From: Raillietiella orientalis
Lineage: Eukaryota
Length of the DNA: 64,000 nucleotides
Assembly: GCA_036172245.1 (NCBI GenBank)
Contig: JAYWIR010000038.1
Coordinates: 992,001-1,056,000, forward strand
Reading direction: 5' to 3'
The notes under the pieces were generated by a model that did not search any database, had not been told where the DNA came from, and was given only the letters and a program-made list of their open reading frames with translations. Positions 761 through 62,582 of the stretch are shown here, in pieces. The translations under genes were made by a program, and so were the position numbers. Within the stretch, counting starts at the first letter, position 1. Each line of letters opens with the position of its first letter.

Positions 761-2507
761 AGCATCCTTCGGAGAAATTCTCTCTAAGAGGCAGCGCGTA
801 GCAGTGTCCGTGTGAGGCTGCCCGGAAGATACAGGATCGGATGCACAGGAAGCTGGTATCAGCTTGGCTTAGCCGAGGTTCTCAAGATGCTAACTAATGC
901 TGTCACTTTAGGGAGGCAGCTGGATGGACCGCCTTCGTCTGTGACGCGCTCAAGGGTGGAGTTCTTTTTCATTCTGCTTGCGAATGCAAGTGCAGTCCAT
1001 GGAGAGGCTGTGGAGCGCCTACTATAGGCGCTCCACAGCTGCTGAGAGCCTGTTGTCTTTCTGCTCTCATGCCGACAAGGAAAGTACCTGCGGTCTTATT
1101 GGTACTTGCTTCGAACCTCCCTCGCATCCGCAGACCTATGCTAGCCTATTGTCGTCCGCTCTGCCTGATTGCTTTGAGGACCCCCCAGTGGGAGCCCGTC
1201 GAACAACAACGCTCGTCGGTAGGAAGCACTAGGCACGCAGGTGCGCTCCATCACAGTCCACTCCTCTTCCATCCTAGAGTCATCACCGCTTGGGGGAACG
1301 CGGAGTGACCGCGGACTACCGCTGGGGCGTGTCGCGTGACCGTCCAAGACACCATGCCATCTTTCCTGCGTCAGTGGAGGAATGAGAAAAGGAGGCCGGG
1401 TCCCCTACAGAGTGGGAGTCACGGAGGTAAAGAACTCGATGAGGGGACCGGGGTTTGTCGAGCATACCCCGGTCCCCTCATCGAGTTCTTAGAAACTAGA
1501 GCTAGAGCTCAAAAGAAGGCGATAGGGTCTCTCACGCGGCGGGCTCGCGTGAGAGACCACGCCCAAGGGCCTTGCCCGGGGACCACAAAAGTAAATTGAG
1601 TCTCTTGACATCTTCCGGGAAACCTCGGTATCCCGGCCTGGTAGATGCCTTGGGCTTACAGGTAGAAGCCTCCGTCCTTCGCCTGCCCTGCCATCGCACC
1701 ACCATCACCTTGCTGGTTGTGCAATGAGACCTTCCTTGCAACGAGAGACGGTGACACACCTCCAGGAGGATTCCAAAAGAAACCCACCCGCTTATGAATA
1801 GTGAGAACTCTTTAGCAAGCGCTTCCAAGATGCATTGGTATGCAGCAAGGATGGAAGCGCGCCTCAGAGACACTCCTGGAGACCCGTTCGGAAGTTGGCT
1901 CGTCTCTTCGGTCTCGCCGGCTGCTGACAGGGCCTCCCTCCTCTCCGAGAACTGTCTGCTCTAAGCAAGCGATGGTCACCACTAACACCGAAAAAGAATT
2001 CTGGACACCATCCTAGAGGATCCTTCTTCTCTCCTCATTGGGATTGCAGAAAAACGGTTCGAGCCAGCAAGTGGCTCAAAATAAAGTCTCGAGACAGTGA
2101 CGCGCGCGCAGAGCATGTCTTAAGCGGTTGGCGAAAGAGGAGCGCCGTTTTCGGCCTTGTCGCTCTCGAAGAGATCTCTCTGGAGGCACAGGGGCGTGCA
2201 CCACCTCAGATCTCCTAAAGGCACCTGTCCTGAGATGAACTGGCGTCCTTCCCCCCCCCTCCTTCCCTCCCCTTCCCAGCTGCGTCTCTGTGCTCCCCTT
2301 TCGCATGCACACCAGACATCCGCCCTGTCAGGTGTAGATTGAAGGGATGCATCCTTGACGGCTTTCTGGACTGCCGCGTCCTTCGTTAGGATCGGGAACT
2401 CGTGCCAAGAGCTCTTTCTCACCGGAGGGACGTCCCTAAGGCCCTCGTGCGACGTTTCCTCGTAAGAGATGATGGGCCTTTGACAAACACTGCAGCCTCG
2501 CCCTCGA

Positions 2508-4639
2508 AGGTGCATTCGGCCTGAGGAAGTGCCGGGTACCTTGGCTGTCGCGGTCGATCTCCGCAAGGCGTTCGACTGCGTGAATCAGTATCTTCTTCTG
2601 GAGCTCCTGGAAAGCCTTGGTCTCCCGGTGCACCTCGTGGCCTATTTGCGCGCTTGCTGGCGCCACGCGCTGATCTCTATCTCTTTCAGCGGCTGCCATG
2701 TGTACGGCGTGCCGGTGCGGCGGGGCATCAGGCAGGGAGACAGCTTAAGTCCGTTGCTCTTCAGCATCTTCTTTGAGTTGGTGCTAAGGGCGTACAGGCT
2801 GACGCTAGCCAGCCTGCCGAGCTCTTGTCCAGCAACGCCGTCCGTGGCAGCCTATGCCGATGACCTGCTTCTCCTTTTACCCATGACCACCCCGGCGTCC
2901 AGTCTTGGAGATTTCTTCGAACTGATTCGTCGGGGAGCGGGCATGAGCGTAAACTGGAGCAAGAGCGTGGTCGTTCCTGTTGGTGCGGCGTGGGAGGGGC
3001 AGTCCGACTGTATCCGCCTGGGGATCCCGAACGCTTCGTCTTTCAAGTACTTAGGCGTCCCGCTGGGAAACATCAGCCCAGTGGAAGCGTGGTCGGACTG
3101 CCTTCGCAGGCTACGAGTGCTCTGAGCCCGTTCCACCTTGGCAGGTTCCTCCTGCCGGAGCGGGCCACCTTGTGGAACACCTTCGTTGCCCCCCTCTTAC
3201 GCCCCCTGCTTTTTGTTTGCCCGCCCCCCTACTCGGCGAAGCTTCAGGCGCACAGCCTGTTGAGGAACGCTCTGTGAGGACCTGAGAGGTCCAGGATCCG
3301 CCTCAAAGACTTGGCGGCTCCGCTTCGGGATGCCTGTTTGGGCATCCTGACGCTGGAGAGAATCGAGCTGCAGGTGCAGCTTCGAATGTTGGCCTTGTAC
3401 GCCAATCTTTGGTCCACTCCGTGGTGTGCTCCTGCGCGTCTGCTCCTGCGGCGCTGTACCGGCAGTGATGGACTTCTGCCGCTTTGGCCGCATACGGAGC
3501 GCGCCACGAGAAGCTTCGGTTTCCCCTTGAAACCGCTTTACCGGCTCCTGGCAGCCCAGGAATGGATCTCCTGCCGCCCAACGAACTTTGAAGCCTGGCG
3601 GCAGGAACCGTTGCATGCCTGGGCAAAGCAACAGGATGTTTCGCTCCTGGAACTCCGTTGCGCCAACCTCTCTCCGTACTGCACGGTGGATGAGGTCTGC
3701 AACAGCCAGGAGAAGTGGACTCGCCTGGCCGTCACGCCCCTCGCCGACGCGCTGTCAGCCCTCAGGGCAAGTGATGACAGCTGCCTACCGGCGAGGTGTG
3801 AGGTCACCTGCGCCATCGCAGGAGCAACACGACCCATAGTCGGCTGGAGGACTTGCGAGCTCGCAGACGCCGCCACGCCTCGCATCATCCCGAAGGGACT
3901 CCATCGGTGGAGTTAACATTTGAGTGTGCCTCCCGAAGAACTTGTGGTCCCTCCTTTGTGTTTGAACACTTCTGTGTTCCCTCTAAACTGGAAACAGGAC
4001 GTCATTATGCTGGTGCACTGGGGTTTTCACTCCGACCAGCGGACGAACCGTGTGTCCGGGGGAGTCGTCTCCCCGAACTGTAAGCGGTGCGGGGAAGTGG
4101 AAACGCTCCCGCACCTGCTCTTGGACCTCCAAGGACTGTGGCGAAGGCTGACCTCAGCTCTCCTGCACCGGGGGGACACCGCGAGAGACTTGATGCACCG
4201 CTTCTTCACGCCAGGCGGCCTGTCTCTAGGTGTGGTGGTCGCAACGGTGTGTTGCACCAGCGCCATCGACAAGGCCCACCGAGAGCTGGAGAAACTGGCC
4301 ATTCTTCGTCAGCCCACCGGAATAGCCGGCGTGAACATGGCGTCGGCTGCCGAGTGGGCCCATTTTCCAGAGGGCGTTAGGAGAGAGATCGCCAGCATCT
4401 ATCGCCGGTTCTGAAAGAATGAAACGGCCGCACCAAAGATCCCTGTCCCCTCCCCTCCCCATATCTTTATTTCTATTTTTTATATGTGTATTTGTGGTCC
4501 CCTCCCTCCCGTTCCGGACTTTCGGTATACCGACCTGCGTGTCGGGGATCCCCCTCCTTCGTTTCTTCTGTGTCCTCTGTCCGGGAACTCTGTTCCTGGA
4601 TCGTTTATTAATAAACGCCCCGGCGCACCCGGGTGACAA
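2508..4639 (+). mobile_element. 5'-truncated L1/Tx1-like non-LTR retrotransposon with 16-bp TSD
   Basis: RT motifs DLRKAFDCV, RGIRQGDSLSPLLF, YADD, FKYLG and C-terminal CKRCGEVETLPHLL. Flanked by gcagcctcgccctcga (2492-2507) and gcagcctcgctctcga (4640-4655). Ends ataaacgccccggcgcacccgggtgacaa. Confidence 0.92.
2529..4414 (+). pseudogene. Disrupted ORF2 (reverse transcriptase + C-terminal region) of the non-LTR element
   Basis: ORFs 2529-3125, 2990-3277, 3311-3916 and 3920-4414 join through one frameshift near 3120 and in-frame stops at 3275 and 3914. Confidence 0.88.
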
Positions 4640-4859
4640 GCAGCCTCGCTCTCGAGTTGCGATCGTCGCGTCGAGGCAGCTCGCTCTGCAGCGGAGCTTT
4701 CAGGACGAAAGCGACAGGCCATCTTCCTCCTCCTCCTCCTCCTCTTGGCTGTCCCCACTCCACAGGGAGCTGCGGGGAGCCCTCAACCGAATCGAGCGGC
4801 GAAGGGGGGCGTTGCCCGTATCGGAAGGGGGCCGAGGACCGTAAGGACCGGATTTCGAA

Positions 4860-6129: not shown

Positions 6130-6888
6130 TCACTCCTCCTCCAGGCCCGGAGGGGCCGGAGAAGGGCGCCGCAGCACCTTCACGTAGTGGACGGCCGTCT
6201 CGGCGACGTTGGGGTTGTCCTGTGGGAAGGCAAGCTCTCCGTCCGGACCCCTGTAGCTGGCGTAGGGCAGCTCGTTGACCCTCTCGAAGCCGCGACTCTC
6301 GTAGGCCCTCCTGGACGAGGACGAGGTGGCGTCGGCGCTGGCGACGTGGCAGCGGACGGCGTGGGCCCTCCGAAGGCTGATGTCCGTGAACCGTGAGTGG
6401 ATGCCCCGCTTCTGGTACCCCTCCAGCACTGACACCATGCAAATGTATAAGAGCCTTCCGTCCCCGCCGTCCTCCGCAGGGTGCCGCTCATCCAGTGGCC
6501 CCTCTAGCCGCTCCAGGAAGTTGCCGATGAGGAGCAGGCGCCCTCTGACGGCCGCGTCGAGCCGCTGGCTCTCCGAGGCGATGCGCAGCTGCTGCACGAT
6601 GACCTTTTCGTCGCCGGGCTCGATGATCTCGTTGATCGCCATGGCGATGACGCAACCGGTGGCCTCGTCCAGGGCCACGTAGGACGCGTTCTGTGGGACG
6701 ACGAGGTCAACGTATGAAGAGAAGAAGTATGAGGAGTGGACGCCCCCCACGAGGTGGTTGAGCGTCTCCCGGACACCGAAGTTCCTGTCGAAGTTGTCCA
6801 GGAGCTCCACCTTCCTGTCGATGCCGCACAGGGCGAATCGCACGCCCGGGATGGCGACCTGGTCTTCCTCGAGGATGGCGTCCGTCAT
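6130..6888 (-). CDS. GNAT N-acetyltransferase, insect-type arylalkylamine N-acetyltransferase (iAANAT/DAT)-like, 252 aa, intronless
   Basis: ATG in an ACC-ATG context at 6888. FGVRETL resembles the FxxDEPL motif; acetyl-CoA motif A SVLEGYQKRGI; ATSSSSRRAYESRGFE..ELPYASY. Minus-strand AATAAA at 6091-6096. The extension to 7137 in the ORF track is low-complexity and probably UTR. Confidence 0.88.
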   Translation of the reverse strand: MTDAILEEDQVAIPGVRFALCGIDRKVELLDNFDRNFGVRETLNHLVGGVHSSYFFSSYVDLVVPQNASYVALDEATGCVIAMAINEIIEPGDEKVIVQQLRIASESQRLDAAVRGRLLLIGNFLERLEGPLDERHPAEDGGDGRLLYICMVSVLEGYQKRGIHSRFTDISLRRAHAVRCHVASADATSSSSRRAYESRGFERVNELPYASYRGPDGELAFPQDNPNVAETAVHYVKVLRRPSPAPPGLEEE

Positions 6889-8495
6889 GGTTCCCTGGGA
6901 CGAGGACCCGGTCAGCAGAGCGCCGTCAGCCCCCGAGCTGCCTCCAGCGCAAGTCGACCCGTCCGCCGCATGCGCACGCGCAGTAATCGCAGGAGGCGGC
7001 CAGAGCGGAAGGGACACTGACGCGAAGAGGGAGCCCCGTTGGGGTCGGCGCACCCCCGAAGAGCGCCCTCGGGAGAGAGAGGGAGAGGGAAGGAGAGGAG
7101 AGGCGACTCGTCCGGGGAACGAAGAACGAACTGCCACCGTTCCGGGAAGAGGGAGGGGGGGGGGAAAGGAGGAGTTCGAGCCGGGAGCCGCAGGAGGGAG
7201 AGAGGAAGTTTCGGTCCTCGCCTCAGAGCCCTCGGGAGCTGCACGCGCGTGCGCGCTCTGATGACGTCGCTGGGACTTCGGCCCGCGTCCTGCTCTCTAG
7301 TTGGGAGAGAGAGGTCTGGGAGGAAGGGCGCCACCGGCCGCGTCCCGAAGTCCGGGAAGTCTGGAAGTCGCCGGGATGCCGTGCCGCCACCGGACGCCGA
7401 CGTGGTGCCTCTCGTGGCATCGGCAAGTGCTCAAAACAGGAGAGGACGGGCGACCAGAAGGCGCAGCTAAGAGCAAAGCTGGAGGGAATTGAGCACTTTT
7501 CGAGACGGGAGGGGGGTCCATGGTTCCGGGTGACGCTGCAGGTTCTGAGAAGCGAGGAGAGGCCCCTCGCGCGGAATGGTGGCCGGGGGGGGAGCAGGGA
7601 AGCGGCAGGGGAAGAAGCACGCTGCCGCAGCAACTGCATGCCCTTCTTGCCCGGAGGGGCGTCCCAGAGCAAGTCTAAGGAGGGAGGAGAAGAGGGGGGC
7701 AGGGCATTTTTTCCCTCTGGCCTCTACGGACTAAGGAGGGAGGGGGTGCCCTCGCGCCCTCCCTCCACTCTCCACATTTCTCTACGGGTTCCGCAAACCT
7801 GACCTCAGGATCCTGACTTCATCATTCTTCGGACCGGGCCGCTCCGGGCGAGGAGGGTGAGAAGAAGGGAGGCGAGACAGAAGTTCCGAGGGTGTCAAGG
7901 CTGGCGAAAGATACCGGCGCTTCCTCCCGCCGACCGCAGGCGCCCAGGGATACGGGATCCGAACCCACGCGTACACTCCGGAGCCTCTCACCGAGCGAGT
8001 CAGCTGCGATGTCACAACGCCTCGAAGGGCTACTGCAACACCTGGTCTCTCCTAGCGAAAGCACTCTGAGCACTGGCTGCTATGGCCGCTTCCTGTCACC
8101 ATGCAGGCAGCAATTCCCAACTGCTCATGCGTCCTCAATTCCGCGTTCCCTCGGCAAACGAGGATCCTCCCAAGACGAGCAGAGAGAGGCTCTCCCTCCC
8201 TTCTCGCGAGCAGAGCCCTTCCCGAGAGCGGGAGAACCCTTCCTGCTCCTTCCCTCCCTCCGCCGCCGATGCTATCCTCTCGGGAGGAAGAGTTCTGCGC
8301 AGATAATCCCGTGCGCTCGTGTGCGCGCACATAAAACAGAAGGGAGAAGGGGGTGGAGAAGACCCTCCGAAGGATTCCTCTCCTCTCCCTTTCTGCGGGA
8401 GCGCTTCCGGACAGAGGAAGCTCTACCGGGCTCCCCGTCCGGTAGGTCCGCGCAGGTGACCACATTCGCATAGCCGTTCGCTCTCGTCCACTCAC

Positions 8496-8826: not shown

Positions 8827-9582
8827 CTAATTAATAAAATATTTTGATATTTACATTGCCGTAGTGCACAGGCAACTAGTTTGGGTATTTCATTACAATT
8901 CACGGACTGTTTTCTTTTAACTATAGGTAATAATAATAACAGGTATTAAAATCCGGAGATTTTCGCTTGGGGGAAATCGCGGGTTTCCGAAGACCATCTA
9001 GTGGGATTCTCTTAACTTCTGTTGGCAGCTCTGCGTGCTGCCAGTCTGGCAGGATGGGATGCGCTCCTCTCGGGGTGAACTGCGCGCCTTTTGTTCTCGG
9101 AGCTTTTCCCGGAGGGGAGGACTCGTTCCCCCTCCCTTCTTCCCTTCCTCCTCCCTTCCTTCGTCTTCCGCCTCCAGGCGCTCCGGAGATGGGTACGCGG
9201 TACTTTCGAGGCCGCTGTCCGGAGATGGGAACCGGACAGCAGCCTCCACGCGACCCTTCTCCACGGGATAGTCCAGGAAGCGAAGGGTCAGGTGAGAGGA
9301 GAGGAAGGGGCTCCGCTGTCGAAAGTGTTTCTGGAAGAGATGCTGCGACGGATGTGGTAGCGGCCCGACCATTGGCGAGAACCTCTCTAGATGAGTGAGA
9401 AGGCGGGAGGAAGGGTCCAGGTGGGGCCAGGAGAAGGGGATCCAATGGGTCGGAGGAGTCTCGTCTTCCATCTGCTCGGCAGCTATGGGCGTCTTTTGCA
9501 AAGAATGGATGCTCGGCCATTCTTATTTATTTGTTTTGAATAATCTTCAATATATCTCGATAATATAATCGGCAAGAAGAGG

Positions 9583-9618
9583 GTCACTTGGATGACAAAA
9601 AAAGTCATTTGGATGACA
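9583..9618. repeat. Tandem 15-nt short palindromic units (gtcacttggatgaca / gtcatttggatgaca)
   Basis: Two copies at 9583-9597 and 9604-9618 separated by an A run. Each has gtca...tgac ends. Confidence 0.7.
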
Positions 9619-9681
9619 CCTTTTGTTGTGAGCTCACTTTTACTCTATGATTACCTCTTTAGAGCACATTGTCTATCCATT

Positions 9682-10434
9682 TCACCATTTCGCTGAAATG
9701 GTACCTTCCTTTGGTTTCAAACATTCGGTAAGGACATTTTTAATTGCAGTACTTATCGGATCTTTTAGCCTTTCTCTACTCACCTTCTCACAAAATCTTC
9801 TCACACCGTAACCTATTAATGCTGTAATGAATTGCAGCTACTGTTGCAGCTGTGATGAATACCGCAACAGCAGTACCAACAGGGGTCCAAGCAGCAGCAT
9901 CTGCAAGGTATGCTATGCTCATACCGAAGCTCACTAGTAACAGAACGCATGAAAAAGAGCTCTTTTGCCAATAATTGGAGGTCTTAAGTGAGTTTGTGAT
10001 GTATTTTATTTGCTTTCCCAATAACGAATGTTGGTATTTCACCAATCTTTACAGTAATCCTCAAAATCTTTCCAAAAACTATTACACTTATGTTGCTGAT
10101 TTTCTGAATCTTTATCGTTATTCGGATATTGATAGCCTCCGCTATTATCATATTGCCTTCTTTTTCCTTGATCAGATAATACTTTGTTTGCCTTGTCGAT
10201 TTCTATGAATTTTGCTATTTTATTTTCGATCTGAATTTTCTGCTCTTTCTCTAATTCTGATAGCAGCTCTCTATTTCTTATCTGGTCTGACGATGCGCAT
10301 GATGTTTGCTTTTCCTCAAGTGACAAACACTTATCTGGATGAAACTCTTTTGCAAACTGGCGATACGCTTTTTTTATCTCATCCTCAGTAGCATTTTTAC
10401 TCACTCCTAATACCTTATAATAGTCAGCATTCAT
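9682..10434 (-). pseudogene. DnaJ (J-domain) protein with C-terminal hydrophobic segments, two frameshifts
   Basis: [32 protein letters not shown] (HPD motif) and [14 protein letters not shown]. Frameshift near 10045 into a hydrophobic segment (..TPVGTAVAVFITAATVAA). Second frameshift near 9830 into ALIGYGVRRFCEKVSRERLKDPISTAIKNVLTECLKPKEGTISAKW*. Confidence 0.8.
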
Positions 10435-10990
10435 AAATCCCCCACTCCATAAACTTCCTTTATGTTAAGGATATAGTTAACCTAAGCTTTTGTCCATACG
10501 TAGAATGTAATACATCAAAAAATGGTTCAACCTATACAAAAAGTCTTTTCTAATTTAACAGAACACTACACTTTCTGGCATCAACCAAAATTCATTTAAT
10601 TACCTTCGAAAATTCCAAAAAGTGCATACATCTGTAAGGACAGGCCGCCTAAAAATGCAGTTGTGAAAATAGAAAGGTCAAACTGTTGCAACAAAGTCAG
10701 GCAAATCAGTTCGTGTACAAATTTGTGAAAGCATAATAGTATAGCTAATTTCAAGGCATAGTGGAGCTATTATAAACAAAAAGGTTATGAGGTTAGGAAC
10801 AACGTCTACGAGTAAAATTTCACAGTGCCACTTCTATGTGCTATAATAGACTTAATTTATAAGGAAAACAAAGTTGGAAAAGTTGGGGGAATTTAGAGAG
10901 AACTGGATAGCAAGGACAGGAAGATTTTTATCTTCATTATTTTTTTTAACGGCTGATTGCGCTATCAATACGAAGTTTTTTATTCGAGCC

Positions 10991-11786
10991 GACCCGTGGG
11001 CGGCTGCAGGACCTGCGAGCTGGCAGACGCCGCCACGCCTCGCAACATCGCGAAGGGACTCCTTCGATTGAGTGAACACTTGAGTGTGGCCCCCGATGAA
11101 CTTGTGGTCCCTCCCTCCTGTTTGAACATTTCCGTGTTCCACCTTTCGTGGAAGCAGGACGTCATCATGCTGGTGCATTGGGGTTTTCACTCCAACCAGC
11201 GGACGAACCGTGTTTCCGGGGGAGTCGTCTCCCCGAACTGTAAGCGGTGCGGGGAAGTGGAAACGCTCCCGCACCTGCTCTTGGACCTCCAAGGACTGTG
11301 GCGGAGGCTGACCTCAGCTCTCCTGCACCGGGGGGACACCGCGAGAGACTTGATGAGCCGCTTCTTCACGCCAGGCGGCCTGTCTTTAGGTGCGGTGGTC
11401 GCAACGGTGTGTTGCACCCGCGCCATCGACAAGGCCCACCGAGAGTTGGAGAAGCTGGCTATTCTTCGTCCGCCCACCGGAAGAGCCAGCGCGAACATGT
11501 CGTCGGCTTCCGAGTGGGCCCATCTTCCAGAGGGCGTTAGGAGAGAGATCGCCGGTTCTGAAAGAATGGAACGGCCGCGCCAAAGACCCCTGTCCCCTCC
11601 CCTCCCCATATCTTTATTTCTATTTTTTATATGTGTATTTGTGGTCCCCTCCCTCCCGTTCCGGACTTTCGGTATACCGACCTGCGTGTCGGGGATCCCC
11701 CTCCTTCGTTTCTTCTGTGTCCTCTGTCCGGGAACTCTGTTCCTGGATAGTTTAGAAACAAACGCCCCGGCGCACCCGGGTGAGAA
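10991..11786 (+). mobile_element. 3' fragment of the non-LTR element (close relative of 3830-4639)
   Basis: Near-identical by eye to 3830-4639, including the 3' UTR and terminal hairpin. Confidence 0.9.
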
Positions 11787-12465
11787 ACAGTGGCGCTCTC
11801 CCTCTGAAGTGACAGGAGGTGGCGTTGCTGGTGCTGCATTGGGGAAGCCCATGCAAAGCACGTCTCCATCACTGGACACGGGGTAGTGTGGATGCCCGTT
11901 GCGAAAGGTGCGGCGATGTGGCAAGAAAGAGACTTCGCTGCACCTTCTGCTGGACTGTGCTGCCCTCCGACCCCTCTGGGATTATCTGTCGAAGATCTTA
12001 GATATTCCCGAAGGCGGTCCAGGGACATTTTGGGGAGCCTCTTCGTTCGTCCCGATCTGCCGTCAGCCGCGTCTGGAAGTTCCCTGCTGCATCCGCGAAA
12101 TCGTGGCGGCCTGGAACGAGAGAAGACGAAACCAGAATGGTAGGAACGCCATCCACTGGACGCGGGTCTTTCTAAAAAACGCATCAAGATGCCCCACCTG
12201 GGAAATAAAAGACCATAACTTGTCAGCATCCTAGAAAGGGTGCTGACAAGTTATAGTCTCCCCAACAAATACCTTCCTCTCTTATTTTTCCCTTTTTGTT
12301 TCCCTTTTTTGTCTTCCGTCTCCCTTCGCGGCGATAACGGACCTCGCCGGTCTACTGACCGGTGACCGGCAAGTTGGACTGACGTGGTGAACCAATCGGT
12401 TAACCACTGGATAACTCGTTTTGTACTTTTATTATCTTCATAATAAATGCCCATCCGGGTAATAA
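11787..12465 (+). mobile_element. 3' fragment of a diverged non-LTR copy
   Basis: LLVLHWGSPCKARLHHWTRGSVDARCERCG, HLLLDCAALRPLW, T-rich UTR, hairpins, and the end taataaatgcccatccgggtaa. Confidence 0.85.
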
Positions 12466-14100: not shown

Positions 14101-15719
14101 TAGGTGGACCAGCGCGAAATTTCCATAAGGGCGGGCAGGTGGTCCTCATGTGCTGTTTCCCCCCTGTAGCAGCAACAACCGCGTTCCACATCACATCTTG
14201 AAGCTGTTTTTTTTTTTTTTTTTTTTTTTTTACCACTGCACGAGATCTGCTCCGTCGCATCCACCCACCTCAGGAATCGTGTGCTGCGTGCCTGTTTTGG
14301 AGCAACACGTAAATGGTACATGCATTCATCATGAGTAGGAGGAGAAAGTTCGAGAAACTGCCATCTGCTTCGTACACATCGGGGTGTGCTTTTGAAACAT
14401 TCTCCAGTTTGTGTTCCAGGGATGCCAGTTTCGGTGCTCTTCGTATGCAAACGGAACGCGAATGCCATGTGTCACACCCTGTAATGCAGGAGGTTTGGAT
14501 GGAAAAGAGAATTTTGTTGTTGTTGTTGTTTCTCGACCGTCAAAAATTCGAACAGCGGACGGAGCAGAGGCTGCCATGGTGATGCTCAGAGTTCATATCG
14601 GAGATTCCATGGTCGGAGCGCGTCCAATCCGGAAGCAACGCGTGCTTCCCATATCGGATTCACTGCTGTGGTCGTCCGTAGCAAATGCTGGCCGTGTGTG
14701 AAGTCATTTTGGTCTCTTAGACTCGCCTGTGACTTGTGGAAGAGGCCGGCCAATGGCTTTCCATTGGGCAATGATTTAAGAAATCGTTTGCGCTGGTGAG
14801 CGTCTTGAGGTACGCCTCTTGAGGTATGCAAAAAATAAATAAATAAAACTCTTTGTAAGGCAGGACCGAAGTAGTCCAAGGGGGGGGGGAGATGGTAGAC
14901 AGTAGAAGGACACGCGTCAGGGAAGAGGATTTCGATGTTTTGGAGTTGTCCAATCAGGAAGCTTGGTCGGTGACCAGAGAGGAACTCTTGAGGGTCGTTG
15001 TTTCGACCGCTTGAGATTGAGTTGTCTTGACCTTCGATTTTGTCTCGACGTCTACGCTGAGTGTGAGGAGGACTTCTCGTGGGAAGAACGGTCATGAGAA
15101 AGAATACGGGCAAAACCGCACGCAAATCGGTCCTTTCTCTGGCTTGAGGTGACACGAGCTGTACCATTGGATGTACCTGAAAGTGCATCTGGGCAAGGAG
15201 ATGCCATCTTGCTGAGCCCGGGGACCGCGCTTGATGTCGATGGTTACGCGAATTCACGTCGAGTGGGAACGTGGCATCACTGGTAATTTTTGCCAAGGAG
15301 TAGGTGGTAGGTCTCTTCTGAACCAGAGTGGAACCGGATGGAGGCGGGTCAGGAAGCTCGGATGCCTGCGAGTTCGGCAAGATGGCACATTGCGGTGCAT
15401 CTGGAGAAGATCCCGCCAAGTTCGCTTTCCTCCTCATCAGTCGGTAGAGAAATGAAGACGATCTCTTGAGGCGAATATGGGGTTAGTGAAATAAATAGTT
15501 GTTCGGAGCTATTACTTGTATAGCGCCCGATGGTATGGTTACATACCAGGGCGAGGTTGATCTCACAGATGGTTATGCACACGAAATGCAGTCGCTAAGG
15601 TATTTCCGGGGACAGAGCTTTGATTAATGAGTAGGAAACTGGAAGGTGAAAGAATGAGATGGCAACCATGCCAAAAGTGGGGTTTGGTTCAAAATCCCGA
15701 ACGATCTTCGAAATGAATA

Positions 15720-16570
15720 CGTGCGTTTATTATACATGTATAGAGATCTATATATATACTGTAAATGTTATAAAACATATATATTAATATACGTTTGACA
15801 TATAATAAATATATATTCAATGGATATGTAAATGTCGAATTTTTAAAAAGTGCTGGCAATTAAAAGTAATGATAAGGAAAAGAAGACAAATTAACAAAAA
15901 CACCAGAGAAATTTTGTATTTCATGTTCCTATAGATAAATTTTGTATTTTTTGTATTTCATTTGTCCAGCAATTGAGAAATGGCACTCCCTTAGGAAATG
16001 ATGGATTCTGTTTTCGGGATTTTGATCAGAAGATAAATACATCATGTGCTTATAACCCGATGTGTATATATTCATTTCGATGTGTATATTTATTAAATGC
16101 ATCAATATACATATATATATATAAAATGTATAGTAAGCATTTATAATTATTTTTTATTGTCTTTGATATGTACATTAATAATATATGTCAATAGGCAATA
16201 CTAATTATATTAATAAATATGCATGTTAAAATAAATGTGTATATTACTATATATAAAAAATATACATCAGTGTGCATAATAGATGTATATATATATATTT
16301 ATAATCTTTAATATGTGTATTAATAATAAACACATGAATTATATTAATAATATTCATGTTAATAAATACATGTGTTAAATATTACTATTAATTATGTGCA
16401 TATTAATAAATATGCACGCTAAAAATTAATATCGACCATTTATAAATATATATATTAACATGCATAATGAACACATGCATTTATTTTAATGAACTTTAGA
16501 ATATATGTTAGTCTGCACATACGTAAATGTGCATACGAATGTATGTAATGAGCGTGTGTATTTATTTTGA
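15720..16570. repeat. AT-rich low-complexity tract (TA/TATG-rich)
   Basis: Near-pure A/T with degenerate atatat/atgcat units. No ORFs. Confidence 0.8.
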
Positions 16571-16899
16571 ATGACCCTCAGGGATTTCGGAGTTCGGGTT
16601 TTGGTCGGTTTCTTGACCAGTTCCTTGCAGACCCTGAACGGGTGGTTCTGAAGGTTAAACCCACCCTCTTTTGGTGGTGCTGCGCCTCCCGGGTGCAGTG
16701 GGAGGCGAAAGAATGAATCTTCGTGGAATATGACCTTTCAGGGAAAAAATGCAATCTTCAAGCTGCAAGAAACGCGGTCGCAGGGGCGGCTGCCTGATTT
16801 TCGTGGGAAGTTCAAATCGGAGTATGGAGAGGCTCCTGCTGTAGAAGTTGAAGGAGGCACCTGGGAAGTTTCCTTAGTCGAAGCGGAGCAGTCCGTCAG

Positions 16900-23299: not shown

Positions 23300-25904
23300 C
23301 TCACGACCGGCGAAATTCTCTCCGGGATCAAAAGGCTCAAGAGGCATAAGGCACTAAGGGAGGACGGCCTGCCCGTGGATTTTTTTCAATGCTTCGCGGC
23401 AGAGCTGGCCCCCCTGGCGCTCGAACTGACAAGACCGATCCGAGACGAAGGCGATGTTCCTGCCTCGTTTCGGTCAGCCAGGGTGAGGCTCCTTCCTGGG
23501 AGGAGACCTCAGAAAATTAAACAACTGGCGTCCGATCGCTACTGTGAACACGGGCGCCAAGTTAGTGGCATGACTGTGGGCCGCGCGTTTGGGGCAGGTG
23601 GCCCACTCCATAATTAGCCCGGAGCAGACTTACTCTGTTCCCGGGCGAAGTATGGAGGCCAACCTCTTCTTCGCGAGCACATGGTTTCACGTGCAGCGAG
23701 AAGAAACAATGAAAGGGCGATTTATCGGCAACCTTGCTTCGGGGCCGCCAGCCGGGCAGGGGAGGGGCAATCAGGCGGGGAAGGGAGCCTTAGCGATCGC
23801 AGTTGATCTCCATAAGGCGTTCGACTGCGTGGATCAGGAGCTTCTTTTGGAGCTCCTGGATCGCATGGGATTCCCACCCTCCTTAACAACCTACCTGAGC
23901 TCCTGCTGACACAATGCGCTTATAAACGTCAATTTCAGTTGTCAAAACGTGTACGGCGTGTACGGTGCGGCGCGGCATCCGGAAGGGCGACAGCCTGAGT
24001 CCCCTGCTCTTTAGCACCTACTTCGAGTTGGTGCTGAGAGCATACAGGGCGACTTTGGCTGCCTTGCTGAGCTCCCCGATACTCCCGCCGTAGCAGCCTA
24101 TGCCGACAATCTTCTGCTCTTGTTGCCCATGTCCGCCCCGGCGACCGCAGTCGAGGACTTCGATCTGCTGGGCCGCGGGACGAGACTGCGGGTAAACGAA
24201 GCAGAGTCGTCGGTGGTGGCGGTTGGTACGACGTGAGTCGAACGGTCTGACTGGATGCCTACGGCCGAGTAATTGAAGTACCTTGGCGTTCCGCTGGGGA
24301 ACTTCTGCCCGTCAGAAGCCTGGTCAGGCCGTCTCCAGAAAGTGGAGTTGGCGATCGGCCCGTTCCTGGAGGGCAAGTTCCACTTTCCGGAACGGGCCGC
24401 AGTATGGAACGCGTTTGCCCCTTCCATCCTTGCCCCCTGCTTTTTGTTTGCCCCGTTCCCCTCCTGTTGAAAAAGAGGACGAAGGACCTCCTATGCATCG
24501 CTCTCTGGGGTAAAGGGAGGCCGCGAGTGCCTCTGATGGACTTATGCGCTCCACGTTGGGACGGAGGCCTTGGTCTCCTGACGCTGGAGCGCTTGGAAAT
24601 CCAACTGCGATGCCGCACCATGGGCATCGCAACGAAGTTGTGGAGCACCCCTTGGTGGGTTCCGGCCCACCTTCTTGCCAGCCGTGTCTCCAGGACGCAA
24701 GGACTCGCGTCTTATCTTCTGTGCCCCGGCCGGAAGATTCGAAGATGCGGCCTGCTCCTTGGACGCATGGCGTCCCTGGCTAAGGAAAACGGCTGGATGG
24801 TTTGCAGCCCCGCAGGAGATCGCTGCACGTGGGCGAAGATGCATGAGAGAAGCCACGAGACGTGGAACTGTCTGCGTGTTGGCCCATACGCCCGCCGCAC
24901 CCTGCGGGAAATACTTGAATTTCCCGCGAGTTGCACGTGGGCAGAGACGACCCCCCTTGCTACGGCGATGCCCTACCTCCGGAGGGCGCTTAGAGGCAGC
25001 CAGAAGCCGAGGTGGCAAGTCTCCTGCCGAATCGCAGGCAGGGAGAAGATGTTAAGCGGCTGGACCACAGGAGAACTGGCGGACGCCACGACCCCGAGCG
25101 TCCAGCCGAGAGCACTTTTGCGATGGGGCGAGCTGCTCGCCATCCCCATGGATGTGCTGAAGTGGCCCCCGGTGTTGTTTGAATCAAGGATCCTGCCCCT
25201 TAAGTGGCAAGAATCGGCGCTGCTACCGTTGCATTGGGGTTTACCCTGCAACGCACGCCGCTTCCACTGGACAAGGGGAGCGGTGGATCCTCATTGTGCC
25301 AGGTGCGGAGAGCGGGAATCGCTCTCCCACCTACTTGTTGACTGTGCTGCCCTCCGTCCCCTCTGGGAACGGTTCGGGACGACCCTCGGTCTCCCTGTGG
25401 GCAGCCAACCCAGCGACGTTTTCCGTCTTCTCTTCGTTCGGGACGCCCTTCAGCCAGCTGCAGCCGTGGCAGCACTCTGCTGCATCCGAGGCATCGTGGC
25501 GGCCTGGAGCGATACCAGCGAGGAGGGAGTGGATTCAAACGCGATGGTTGTCATCCCATATGCTGTTCGCTTCCTGCGGAGAGCTATTGGATGGCCCCAG
25601 ATGGGAAGATTGAAGATGGACCTCGAAGGTATCCTGATAAGGATGGACCCTCCTCAAAGTGGACCGTGATTGCTTCCCTTCCCTCCAAAAACTCTTTTTT
25701 TTTTCTTCTTTGTTTTCTGGTTTATTTTTCTTTTTGTTTTTCCCCCCATCCCCTTCCAATGCCGTGGAGAGTCACACCGGGCTGCGTCCCGGTATCCCGG
25801 CAGGTCCGGCATTACGTGGCCGTTAGTGGGGCCTTGTACCACATACTGTAATGACAAGTGAAACGTTTTTTTTTTAATAAACGTCTCGGAGTTCCCGGGT
25901 GGCA
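23300..25904 (+). mobile_element. Non-LTR retrotransposon copy: decayed RT plus intact C-terminal region and 3' end
   Basis: DGLPVDFFQCF, ISPEQTYSVPGR, VDLHKAFDCV, KYLGVPLG with multiple frameshifts. Open frame 24404-25669 with CARCGERESLSHLLVDC. Ends aataaacgtctcggagttcccgggtggca. Confidence 0.92.
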
Positions 25905-26200
25905 TCTCCGGGAACTGCCCACAACACCAGTGGGGTCTCTTTCTTTGTGAAGCCAGCCGTCGACGCTGCCGTGAGGAGCGTGCGCTTTGATGACGACGGT
26001 CGGGTCGGCCAGCTGATTCTCAGGTGGTCCGAGTCGATCGATCTGATCGTCACAAACGTGTACGCTCCCAGCGGTAAACAGGGTTACCAGGAACGCAATG
26101 CGTTGCTGGAAACCTTGAAGCGCAAATGGCTGGTGGATACGGACGTGCGAAAGGCGCATCTGAAAGCAGGGGATTTCAATCTCCGCCTGCTCTCAGATCA
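25905..26200 (+). mobile_element. APE-type endonuclease fragment of the non-LTR family
   Basis: SGVSFFVK, DGRV, TNVYAPSG and AGDFN motifs of L1-type endonucleases. Confidence 0.85.
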
Positions 26201-37026: not shown

Positions 37027-38409
37027 AGGGGTCCCGAGTACCTCTGAGGGACTTGTGCGCTCCACGTTGGGACGGAGGCCTTGGTCTCCTGACGCTGGAG
37101 CGCTTGGAAATCCAACTGCGATGCCGCACCATGGGCATCGCAACGAAGTTGTGGAGCACCCCTTGGTGGGTTCCGGCCCACCTTCTTGCCAGCCGTGTCT
37201 CCAGGACGCAAGGACTCGCGTCTTATCTTCTGTGCCCCGGCCGGAAGATTCGAAGATGCGGCCTGCTCCTTGGACGCATGGCGTCCCTGGCTAAGGAAAA
37301 CGGCTGGATGGTTTGCAGCCCCGCAGGAGATCGCTGCACGTGGGCGAAGATGCATGAGAGAAGCCACGAGACGTGGAACTGTCTGCGTGTTGGCCCATAC
37401 GCCCGCCGCACCCTGCGGGAAATACTTGAATTTCCCGCGAGTTGCACGTGGGCAGAGACGACCCCCCTTGCTACGGCGATGCCCTACCTCCGGAGGGCGC
37501 TTAGAGGCAGCCAGAAGCCGAGGTGGCAAGTCTCCTGCCGAATCGCAGGCAGGGAGAAGATGTTAAGCGGCTGGACCACAGGAGAACTGGCGGACGCCAC
37601 GACCCCGAGCGTCCAGCCGAGAGCACTTTTGCGATGGGGCGAGCTGCTCGCCATCCCCATGGATGTGCTGAAGTGGCCCCCGGTGTTGTTTGAATCAAGG
37701 ATCCTGCCCCTTAAGTGGCAAGAATCGGCGCTGCTACCGTTGCATTGGGGTTTACCCTGCAACGCACGCCGCTTCCACTGGACAAGGGGAGCGGTGGATC
37801 CTCATTGTGCCAGGTGCGGAGAGCGGGAATCGCTCTCCCACCTACTTGTTGACTGTGCTGCCCTCCGTCCCCTCTGGGAACGGTTCGGGACGACCCTCGG
37901 TCTCCCTGTGGGCAGCCAACCCAGCGACGTTTTCCGTCTTCTCTTCGTGCGGGACGCCCTTCAGCCAGCTGCAGCCGTGGCAGCACTCTGCTGCATCCGA
38001 GGCATCGTGGCGGCCTGGAGCGATACCAGCGAGGAGGGAGTGGATTCAAACGCGATGGTTGTCATCCCATATGCTGTTCGCTTCCTGCGGAGAGCTATTG
38101 GATGGCCCCAGATGGGAAGATTGAAGATGGACCTCGAGGGTATCCTGATAAGGATGGACCCTCCTCAAAGTGGACCGTGATTGCTTCCCTTCCCTCCAAA
38201 AACTCTTTTTTTTTTTTTCTTTGTTTTCTGGTTTATTTTTCTTTTTGTTTTTCCCCCCATCCCCTTCCACTGCCGAGGAGAGTCACACCGGGACGCAGCC
38301 CGGTGTCCCGGCAGGTCCGGCATTACGTGGCCGTTAGTGGGGCCTTGTACCACGTTCTGTACTGACAGATGAAGCGTTTTAATAAACGTCCCGGCGTACC
38401 CGGGTAGCA
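37027..38409 (+). mobile_element. Young 5'-truncated non-LTR insertion with perfect 14-bp TSD
   Basis: tcgccggaagggcg at 37013-37026 and 38410-38423. The frame is uninterrupted to the stop at 38180. Near-identical to 24520-25904. Confidence 0.95.
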
Positions 38410-39358
38410 TCGCCGGAAGGGCGGGAAAGCACCTGGGAGAGGCGTCCGGTCAGCGACCTTCCGGGTCTCCGGGTCCGGCGCTGCCAACGGCCCCTGACGG
38501 TTTCATCTCTGAGCGGGAGGCGTGCCCAGCGCCGGAAACAGGGAGGGGGCAGAGCACAAGGGAGGCGGTGGCGGCGCCCCTTTCGCGCGCAGGGGGTGTG
38601 TGTGCCCGGCAGCAGAGCCACCTGCGCTTCCGAACAGCCCCGAGACCTCCTCGGCCTTGCTTGCGCGCCAACTTCTCCTCCTCCTCCTCACCCTGTTCCC
38701 CCCCCCGTCGGGGATTAACGAACTTGATAAGCAGATGATTCATCCGCCTGACATCTGCCGCCGCGTCTCACCGCGGGATCATGAGCGCCCCCTCTCAGTT
38801 CTCCCGTTGCCGTGAGACGAGGAGCATCCTCGACGGACACACCACTCGGTGCAGATGCTCCCCCCCTCCCGGGAGGCGCCTCCCCCCACTTCCCTTTGCG
38901 TTCCCGAAAGAGTCTTCCCAGCCCGAAGGCAGGAACTGAGCCACGTGATGCCGCTGAGCGCGTGACTTTCCCGGCGCGAAGGCCTGATCCGACCATGCAA
39001 GACAGGTAACGGCGGCGGCGGTGGTGCACGGGGCGGGCGCTTCCCGTTCCCTCGGAACGAGAGGGAGGAGAAAGAGGAAGGGGAAGTCTTGGCGGACGGT
39101 GCCGCTCGGTCTGGGAACGGGCAGGGAGGGAGGGGACTCCGCGCGCGCGAGGGGCGGCGTCCCCCTTCGGGATCGAAGGGGGGTGAGGGGAGGAAGCGCA
39201 CCTTCTTCGCCGACATTTTTGCCCCCTTCCGACGCCGGGAAGCGGGCCGACAGCTTGCGGCTCCAGCATCGCCCCCTTCTGGCACGGACCTGCATGCGGA
39301 TTCTTGCAGGTGGCTGACCCGCGGCTTCCCAGGTGCAGCGGCAGAGGGGAAAGTCTCT

Positions 39359-60000: not shown

Positions 60001-60539
60001 AGAGTTATGGTGAAGTGTTTTGTGGACTAAGGTATTTGCCCACAGCTCGGAGACTGTCAATAGGATTCTTTAAAGCTAGCAAGTTACAACTGGCTAAAGC
60101 AACTGATAAACCAGACAAATGCGGTAAGAGAAAAAAAAGCATACTGTTTGAATTATAACTTGTGCCAGAACTGTATATTGCAGGGCTTCTTCTCGACAAC
60201 AAGGGGCATCTACTGAAAAAAAACAGAACTTCAAACTCCAAAGGATCCTGTAACCCAGTAATCAATGAAACAATCACTTTTCATGTTGAGGAAAAACAAC
60301 TAAACCAAATAGTCATCCTATTAGTGGTGTTCATCCAGAAAGAGAATGAAAATCCTAGCACTGATGAGGAAAATGTGTCCCTACAATCTGGGAATAGTGA
60401 ACCCATTCAATACACATGCCAAGCTATTGGAAAGACAGCATTAGGTTACCATGTCAACCCAGAGTCTGCAGTCAGACACTGGCATCTAATGACTAGCAAT
60501 CCACGACATATAGTCACTCAGTGGCATGCCCTCTATTGA
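45047..60539 (+). CDS. Synaptotagmin-like protein (N-terminal TM, C2A, C2B), multi-exon; start exon and some internal exons unresolved
   Basis: Phase-compatible exons 45047-45180 (TM VLVLMVAVVVLALSVALVMCF) and 46548-46717 (linker). Then 56018-56215 (KACDLP..CNPYFK..HTKVQHHTVNPVYDQLF), 59813-59959 (LYDKDRF), 60003-60123 (GEVFCGLRYLPTARRL) and 60169-60539 (KKNRT..CNPVINETITFHV..HWHLMTSNPRHIVTQWHAL*). Linking the 45-47 kb exons to the C2 exons is inferred. Confidence 0.75.
49068..49885 (+). repeat. Imperfect ~80-bp direct repeat pair (49070-49148 and 49801-49883)
   Basis: Shared cttttcccgcgctcgc(t/a)cctggtttctccc.ccc...ggtc.gacgg...tgca.gaaaatg. Confidence 0.8.
51250..51700. repeat. Dispersed repeat family B copy
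   Basis: ctctccagagtgtc.agaag.gcgc and ttgaaaagtca.gcaca.accctcg are shared with 34140-34450. Confidence 0.7.
53300..53870 (+). mobile_element. Decayed MULE (Mutator-like) transposase C-terminal fragment
   Basis: Across frameshifts: FLPSVPLEDV..LDELTIY, FPPEIWDV..VLNG, GKFQRLVGPSI, FTEVLKGEQ. These resemble the animal MULE pattern LAFVP..DV / PPELWN / FN.LVG..PSI..FIE.LK.EQ. Confidence 0.6.
56018..60539 (+). CDS. Tandem C2A/C2B-coding exons of the synaptotagmin-like gene
   Basis: Four GT-AG-bounded exons splice in frame. The C-terminal W-H-x-L motif is typical of synaptotagmins. Confidence 0.9.
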
Positions 60540-60568
60540 CTCCAATAAATCAGTATTCCAAATAAATA

Positions 60569-62582
60569 TCATATCACATTTTTTGCATTCTTTGACGATA
60601 CTGACTTCCTAGAATTGCATGGATCACTGACTCTACTCCCATTATTAGTGAGCTCAGCTTGCACAGAACATCTGTCTTTAAATCGCTTTACCACTGGAAA
60701 TATAAACTAGCAATACGTTAAGGTATCATGACCTGTTTACCTGCAGAAGTGTCATCAATATCTACTACATTAATACTCGCACTTCCCCCAGCTGCCAAAA
60801 CAAAAGGATCATCAGGAGATAGAGCAAGAGATAACAGAGATCCCAATTTTAGGTCCTTTTGGGCCACAAATGATGGGCTTGGAAGGCAAACATCCCAGAC
60901 TTTCATTATGTTATCGGAGGATGCAGTTATCAAGAGACCATTACACAATCTGCTCAGTTGTAAGCCTAAACAGGCATTTTCATGAGCCTGGAGCATCCAA
61001 ATTTGTGGAGCATTTCTTATATCATAGCAAAACACTGAGCCCTGATCAGTAGACACCAAAAACTGAAAGGGCTGGAACACATTCCAAATCACATGCTCAG
61101 TTTCCAGTCCAGAAAAGTAAGCCCTGGTGGATCTTTGAGGCACCCGTGTGTCATGTAATAGCACATTCCCATCACAGCCACCAGTTAACAATACTGACAT
61201 CTCAAAAGGGTGCCAGCAAATGTCTTGCACTTTGTCAGTGTGACCAGACAGTTGGCTTGTAACAGTCACTGTCTGCAGATCCCATGTTAATGCAGTGTGA
61301 TCAGCAGAGCTACTGGCAAGTTCCAATCTGCTCTTCTGCTTTCAACTGATTAAGTATTTTGCTTTATACAGTACCTGTTGTTGGTGTTCCAGGAAAGTCC
61401 TAGGACTGCATCTTTATGTCCCAAATTGTTCTTCCTCAAAAGGTTCTTTTTACCCAACTGCACTACTGGTTCCTGGCAGTTGATAATATCCATGTCCCAA
61501 ATATCAATAATAGGACTCATACTGCCTATAGCCAGCAAATTTCCTGATTGCAAATATTCTGGATCATGCTGAACAACCTCACAAGTAAGAGGTATTGAAG
61601 GCAGTAACAAGTCATGGTGAACATAGAGTTCCTGCCTCTGTTTGTTGTATACTGAACTCTATGCCTATTGAACAAAAGCTAGACTCACCATATATTTCCA
61701 AAACACTGATATCCTTATCAATGTGGCAAGCAGCAATCAAATTATCATCTGGATAAATATGAATATCATCTTCCTCAGAATCGAAATCCGAATCTGAATC
61801 CATCAAGAGATGGGGGTCATCTTTATCATCCAGGAATACTGCCAAGTTGTCCAAATTCAGCAATGAATCAGTATGCTCTATTGCATGATTAGAAACCATA
61901 TTACTAAATTACATGGTACCTGCATCATCATCATCATCATAAAGGTCTAAAGCATATCGTTTCTCTAGCTCGGAAAATTCTTCAAGTTTCTGTTTTTTCA
62001 TAAATGACTTCTTCCTTTGTTCTTCTGCATGTCTCTTTGGCTTTGATCCCTCATGCATATCCAAATTGTCAACATTTCTGGAAAAGAATAAAATACTCCC
62101 AATTTTTTTTTTTTTTGAAACTGACTCAGCATCCACTTTTGGGTGTTTCAAAAATGCTGCAAGTTCTTCTTTGTTCAGCTCAACCTACAAGTCACAAGAT
62201 AAGGATAAATTTTCATTCACAAGACATACTACCTTAAACAATAACTACCACGATAGCAAAACTTTTAGCACGAATTCATATAAATGATTAAAAGGAAAAC
62301 CGTTGGCATTCATCAAAATCACTACTCACATGAAGACTCTGGCAAGATTGCAATAAAAGTTTTGATGTCTTCTAAATCTATTGTTTAAACATATACGTAA
62401 GCACTACGTACATACATAAACATTTAAAAAATTGAATGTGGGTTCTGATAGTGGCATAACATAGTGTGTTTCCTTTTATACATGCAATGAAACCAGACAA
62501 GCTAAAAAGTGGCTCTTACCTTATGTGGAATTGATGTGGCAATCCCCTTTTGCACCCATGAAATGCAAGAGATACAACTCAT
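60569..62582 (-). CDS. PWP1: Periodic tryptophan protein 1 homolog (WD40 repeat), 7 exons
   Basis: Exons 62582-62520, 62184-62126, 62077-61920, 61877-61689, 61651-61375, 61327-60741 and 60693-60569 splice in frame at GT-AG sites. Motifs: CISWVQKG..P.KVEL.KEE, acidic region, VYN..LYVHHDLLLP, GNLLAIGSM.P.IDIWD.D, GHKDAVL.LSWN, HTDKVQ. Confidence 0.93.

Follow-up and report, generated by a model that had tools for sequence, protein, structure and literature searches.

A probable nuclear Wolbachia insertion beside a LINE in Raillietiella orientalis, with a J-domain gene most likely cut in the bacterium

A short AT-rich island in a contig of the Raillietiella orientalis assembly raises the question of whether bacterial DNA has been integrated into the nuclear genome at this place, and whether the damage to the gene it carries tells us anything about that. 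We studied the island within what we call the window, the whole stretch of 64,000 nucleotides that was analysed. An earlier note on this DNA had read the island as a Wolbachia insertion with a decaying J-domain/transmembrane gene. We consider it very probable that it is a nuclear Wolbachia transfer (nuwt) whose gene was cut before the transfer by a MITE, and which was captured by end-joining and is now non-functional.

The AT-rich island is plainly there, with a GC content of 0.28-0.42 across the sub-segments of 9521-10990 and 0.60 in the flanks. A search of all 491 contigs (210 Mb) of the host assembly finds it once, and two further matches, of 85 and 108 bp, are confined to the part at 9921-10038. 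The span first proposed, 9521-10990, has to be narrowed: clear Wolbachia homology begins only at about 9571-9586 and continues rightwards, and none is assigned for 9521-9570. From 9586 to 10990 the island reads as one collinear piece of Wolbachia chromosome of ~1.4 kb. It starts with an intergenic repeat, followed on the minus strand by the broken J-domain/ankyrin/transmembrane gene (J/ankyrin/TM gene); a divergent intergenic region comes next, and the piece ends with the first 39 lepB codons. The features are:

9521-9585, no strand: AT-rich left edge, GC 0.28; 9571-9585 is a weak match to Wolbachia repeats, and 9521-9570 is filler, decayed donor DNA or host
9586-9704, no strand: multi-copy Wolbachia intergenic repeat with two TTGGATGACA units; best matches beside lepB
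9705-9921, minus strand: 3' tail (hydrophobic/transmembrane segment) of the J/ankyrin/TM gene; 75% DNA identity to L004
9922-10036, no strand: Wolbachia MITE-like element of 115 bp, in the place of a 754-845 bp gene loss that includes the ankyrin repeats
10039-10434, minus strand: 5' part of the J/ankyrin/TM gene with an open J-domain frame (Pfam DnaJ); stop at the MITE border
10435-10873, no strand: divergent intergenic region from the J gene to lepB, with an SD-like motif; 74-77% identity to bacterial loci
10874-10990, plus strand: first 39 codons of lepB (signal peptidase I), with a +1 insertion at 10948; ends at the LINE
10991-11789, plus strand: 3' fragment of a host LINE (a non-LTR retrotransposon present in many copies), cut off on its 5' side at the very point where lepB breaks

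That the island is a mosaic of pieces unrelated to each other is ruled out, since all of its parts map in order to one donor neighbourhood.

When the GTDB genomes were scanned for the J frame, 93 pattern matches came up and only 2 of them were confirmed: a MAG named 'Rickettsiales bacterium' (L004, 81% amino acid identity) and Ca. Mesenet longicola (L005, 62%). The LepB, IscU and IscA proteins of L004 share 90% clusters with many named Wolbachia proteins, and its HscA is a singleton. In the family of L004, 66 of the 98 genomes match the island at E<=0.001. The best of these matches are to G055 (84% over 462 bp) and to G001, the genome of L004 (89% over 388 bp), so the closest bacterial relatives of the island are of Wolbachia type. 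A phmmer search with the J frame against 1.84 billion representatives gave its top score to a protein with repeated generic J domains, which matches residues 4-38 only. Among ten top matches that we looked up, five were clusters with Wolbachia or Mesenet names, one had a CbpA member and four were nameless. Past the first 40 residues the named matches are solely Wolbachia/Mesenet-type and the DNA is collinear with the lepB region, which rules out a eukaryotic DnaJ gene as the source, the outcome that the earlier note had named as fatal to its reading. Protein word-index searches scored nothing among 339 candidates for the tail piece and nothing among 94 candidates for J residues 38-131; both were weak negatives that were later overturned by the GTDB, family-genome and phmmer searches. 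An origin from phage WO or a plasmid is without support, as phage and plasmid collections gave only generic J-domain matches of 80-96 bp.

The gene order in L004 is iscU, iscA, hscB, hscA and lepB (minus strand), followed by the divergent J/ankyrin/TM gene. The island is collinear with the lepB neighbourhood of L004 and of L006, and this collinearity, along with the two confirmed GTDB matches, bears out the proposed Wolbachia origin. The slot beside lepB is variable: in other genomes it is either empty or occupied by different ankyrin genes. To the right, 10587-10990 has 74-77% identity to four further bacterial loci (L008, L009, L011, L012) and to pieces in L004 and L006. To the left, the repeat at 9586-9704 is matched by 29 of the 98 genomes at E<=1e-8, and its five best places (84-90%) all adjoin lepB, so we take the island to be one continuous donor piece of the variable slot. 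The two TTGGATGACA units of this repeat lie at 9588 and 9609. They had been described as short palindromic tandem units; the tandem arrangement is real, but the inverted arm of the bacterial copies is missing.

The J-domain ORF is intronless and runs on the minus strand from 10434 to 10042 (131 codons), with its HPD intact and a Pfam DnaJ match at E=9e-21. A GGAG/GGGGGA SD-like motif precedes its ATG and is common to the bacterial orthologue, so this part of the earlier description was accurate, as was that of a hydrophobic C-terminal tail with ..LIGYG..FCEKVS.ER.KDP.., which we found in another frame than the J ORF. In L006 the orthologue is intact: one frame encodes a protein of 481 aa in which DnaJ and ankyrin domains are joined to a hydrophobic C-terminal tail, an arrangement that the window copy does not have. 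The window J frame has 75% amino acid identity to residues 1-131 of L006, and the J part has 84-89% DNA identity to its best relatives. Two frameshifts had been reported. The one near 9820-9835, in the tail, is a true break, and both frames there match one L004 protein; the one at about 10040 is instead the border of the MITE with its loss of 754-845 bp. On these comparisons the window copy reads as a broken descendant of an L006-type gene. The J/ankyrin/TM gene of the closest bacterial relative (L004:5001-6363) is itself frameshifted and split into three frames, and L082 holds a split paralogue.

What cut the gene is a dispersed bacterial element, which 9922-10036 matches at 73-84% and which has ends of the TACCAA..TTGGTA type. 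Its left end occurs 18, 15, 24, 3 and 2 times in five genomes, and 0 times in a reversed control. We read 20 loci and found seven complete copies of 115-116 bp, two of 90 bp, one of 626 bp and ten that had no right end by the pattern used. An identical 3-bp TNA target duplication is present at 6 of the 7 complete bacterial copies of 115-116 bp. The element has the properties of a MITE: it is short, non-coding and multi-copy, with terminal inverted repeats and a target-site duplication. We found no transposase between matching MITE ends in the 20 loci or in 4 stretches that we read. Some copies of the element (L083:1622-2640 in G001 and L081 in G097) are interrupted by other DNA that includes a transposase remnant, which we take to be IS110-like, and the element may be a target of insertion.

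The two flanks of the window copy of the element differ from each other, which is what a deletion would leave. The gene DNA missing there amounts to 754 bp against L004 and 845 bp against L006, ankyrin repeats included, and both deletion breakpoints fall on TNA in the L004 and L006 orthologues alike. Because insertion of a MITE needs a bacterial transposase, the J/ankyrin/TM gene was most likely cut in the bacterium, before transfer. With this, and with the L004 copy frameshifted and split, the decay of the gene says little about integration, and the earlier use of it as evidence for integration does not hold.

The J part itself has changed in much the same way as its bacterial counterpart. 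The window branch has 20 nonsynonymous (N) and 10 synonymous (S) changes, with a pN/pS of 0.43 (p=0.03 against neutrality), and the branch of the intact orthologue has 21 N and 9 S, with a pN/pS of 0.50. Since the two ratios are similar, much of the divergence in the J part is likely to have built up under constraint while the gene was still bacterial. Drift in base composition told us nothing: the window has 19 AT>GC and 8 GC>AT changes, and L006 has 17 and 9.

The 5' end of lepB at 10874-10990, which the earlier note had overlooked, is more telling. An extra nucleotide at 10948 shifts its frame (+1), and in the membrane helix a Leu has become Arg; 0 of 29 bacterial rows have either change. 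The segment has 3 private changes in 117 nt against a bacterial range of 0-4, so only their kind is unusual. Since lepB is an essential gene and a live symbiont would not tolerate such a lesion, we count the frameshift as evidence for integration, though it is a single lesion beside a homopolymer: the insertion adjoins eight consecutive T (T8) and may have arisen by a sequencing error. An in-frame fusion of lepB to the LINE is ruled out, as neither lepB frame enters the long LINE frame.

The LepB N-terminus also bears on the donor. It is identical at 21/24 residues to that of the Cimex strain, at 20/24 to the Madathamugadia strain and at 14/21 to a group A strain, and Cimex and Madathamugadia hosts are described as carrying clade F Wolbachia (PMC4046930, PMC12693587). 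A tree of the lepB segment (190 columns) leaves the window in an open polytomy, on an end branch of length 0.084, where the median is 0.028, so we hold with only moderate confidence that the donor was a supergroup F-like Wolbachia.

On the right, the LINE starts at 10990/10991, where the lepB homology ends, with at most 1 bp of microhomology and no filler. Its family has 1618 candidates in the assembly, 40 of which were scored at 88-90% identity, and the right edge thus adjoins a host LINE fragment as had been thought. All 7 of the other LINE copies that we examined continue upstream past the junction point, and RVT_1 is encoded in both of the longer copies tested. The left flank (8950-9530) is single-copy, save for one weak match and, at the far end, a short repeat. 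The contig is 2,033,415 bp long and has host-type genes, including a WD40 gene that lies in pieces within the window.

There were other observations in the window. Host-type genes are found at 60159-62184 at a GC of 0.35-0.43, namely a WD40 protein (minus strand), presumably PWP1-like, and a C2-domain-like exon (plus strand). Two copies of one LINE family, at 2331-4660 and 10991-11789, lie 7 kb apart; their 3' ends are near-identical over about 130 bp and the 5' part is >10% different, which hints at gene conversion. A segment of about 1.39 kb is directly duplicated (24524-25911 and 37035-38416; 97.8% identity), and there is a very AT-rich stretch at 15458-16742 where GC falls to 0.19. A long intronless frame at 6130-7296 (minus strand), 2.2 kb from the island, has weak GNAT acetyltransferase matches (E 0.003), and a PDB search with it gave no match.

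The island is one of many Wolbachia fossils in the host genome. A 15-kb probe of the donor lepB region had 24 other matches on 14 other contigs at 69-90%, many of them to repeats, and a 4-kb probe had 4 more at 70-95%. With these two probes we found neither the remainder of lepB nor intact hscA/isc neighbour genes in the assembly. The larger pieces include a 10-kb AT-rich stretch near a contig end (L052, C8:5198000-5207900) that is Wolbachia-like over several kb at 66-91%; its Hsp20 gene is split, it also carries copies of the 115-bp element, and it is a larger and more decayed nuwt than the island. Another AT-rich place (L053:4529-4900, C22) has Wolbachia scraps, two pieces of 50-56 bp and a MITE copy, with 89% identity to G001; a copy of the LINE family that adjoins the island is about 2.7 kb away. 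Two separate Wolbachia fragments of 86% identity lie in GC-rich host DNA (L057:1501-1809 on C7 and L060:1501-1686 on C23), with a frame that we take to be prs (ribose-phosphate pyrophosphokinase-like). At L064:1501-2313 (C73) a Wolbachia-like piece lies within 2 bp of LINE-related sequence.

We believe that nuclear integration is well supported, if indirectly, by these comparisons. The lepB frameshift, the sharp LINE join, the 2-Mb contig of host genes, the lack of an intact donor region and the many other decayed pieces together uphold the earlier preference for a real integration over contamination. It is very unlikely that DNA of a live symbiont was mis-joined to the host contig at a repeat. 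One end of the island does sit on a high-copy LINE, as such a chimera would have it, but an essential gene is frameshifted, the assembly has no intact donor region, the left flank is largely single-copy and many other Wolbachia-like pieces (66-95% identity) are spread across other contigs. It is also unlikely, if somewhat less so, that the Wolbachia DNA arrived together with the LINE by being attached, as a patch, to the 5' end of a 5'-truncated new copy while that copy was integrating. The LINE is truncated on its 5' side right where the island ends, without filler, and the LINE (about 9-11% from its relatives) and the island are broadly alike in divergence, which would suit a joint arrival. 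However, there is no target-site duplication and no 6-mer common to 9471-9590 and 11776-11850, and only 1 of 16 other nuwt-bearing loci (L064) adjoins a related LINE, which does not have the 5'-truncated geometry. Chance adjacency is also easy, as relatives of the LINE cover 7408 of the 64000 window bases.

Some points tell against a decaying nuwt: the J frame is still open, most of its change looks constrained and the left boundary is uncertain. The first two could be read to mean that the MITE trimmed the J/ankyrin/membrane protein to a soluble J domain and that the host kept the 131-codon frame as an expressed Hsp70 co-chaperone, which would make it a symbiont gene shaped by a bacterial transposon and domesticated by the host. 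The intact HPD, the pN/pS of 0.43 and the lack of any indel in 393 nt, against several in the neighbouring coding parts, would agree with this. We nevertheless regard it as extremely improbable: the ratio is like that of the bacterial orthologue, so the constraint can predate the transfer, and the frame is a single copy with no intron and an upstream region of bacterial kind. Most nuwts are also reported to be non-functional in the sources we draw on (PMC12693587, PMC4046930).

We therefore return to a nuwt with a gene that was cut beforehand, for which we propose the following course. In an F-like Wolbachia the variable slot upstream of lepB would have held a J-domain/ankyrin/TM gene, as it does in two relatives. 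While still in the bacterium, the 115-bp MITE would have inserted at TNA sites, with loss of the 755-845 bp between two of them, perhaps by recombination between two MITE copies or by an adjacent deletion driven by transposase. A piece of double-stranded DNA, 1.4 kb long or longer, may then have entered the host germ line and been joined by end-joining repair, which would have fused its right end, with no more than 1 bp of microhomology, to the remaining 3' part of a host LINE. The molecule was probably DNA and not mRNA, since two divergent genes lie on one piece. After transfer it would have decayed without function, as the lepB frameshift suggests.

On this account, the host lineage was once infected by a Wolbachia, probably F-like, whose sequence differs by about 10-16% from all the genomes searched, and the island is a fossil of that infection in which one allele of the variable ankyrin slot beside lepB survives. 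It also gives a caution, as a broken gene in a candidate nuwt may be bacterial damage, and only damage to an essential gene dates the transfer.

Several parts of the island resemble what has been described in Wolbachia. The CGTC-4 REP-like repeats have a 9-bp stem, a 5-bp loop and terminal CGTC/TGTC (PMC3733652); going by that description, the window units are like them in being TGTC-tagged short clustered units, the reverse complement of TGTCATCCAA, but differ in having no paired second arm. The proteins wPip_ANK5 and wPip_ANK58 are Wolbachia ANK proteins with a DnaJ domain and two transmembrane segments (PMC2045654), and the L006 orthologue is like them in architecture, with its J domain, ankyrin repeats and hydrophobic C-terminal tail, whereas the window copy is missing the ankyrin region. 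Disruption of Wolbachia ANK genes by transposons has been reported (bioRxiv 10.1101/2023.10.25.563763), and we likewise see a mobile element within an ANK gene at a rearrangement breakpoint, but here the element is non-autonomous and 115 bp long.

As a whole, the island is ordinary and will not surprise a specialist, since it is one more case of a known type. Nuwts that resemble it in size and state, and in its probable F-like origin, are well known from earlier work (PMC4046930, PMC12693587, bioRxiv 2025.03.16.643567, PMC3849323), among them clade F-like fossils in Dictyocaulus viviparus (PMC4046930), filarial NUWTs that average 434-2038 bp (PMC12693587) and Wolbachia transfers in termites (bioRxiv 10.1101/2025.03.16.643567). 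Like the nuwts described in these three sources, it is a short, decayed and collinear fragment in host DNA, with many sister fragments and a donor that was probably F-like. It does not differ from them in kind; what sets it apart is its LINE junction and that some of the damage to its gene most likely predates the transfer.
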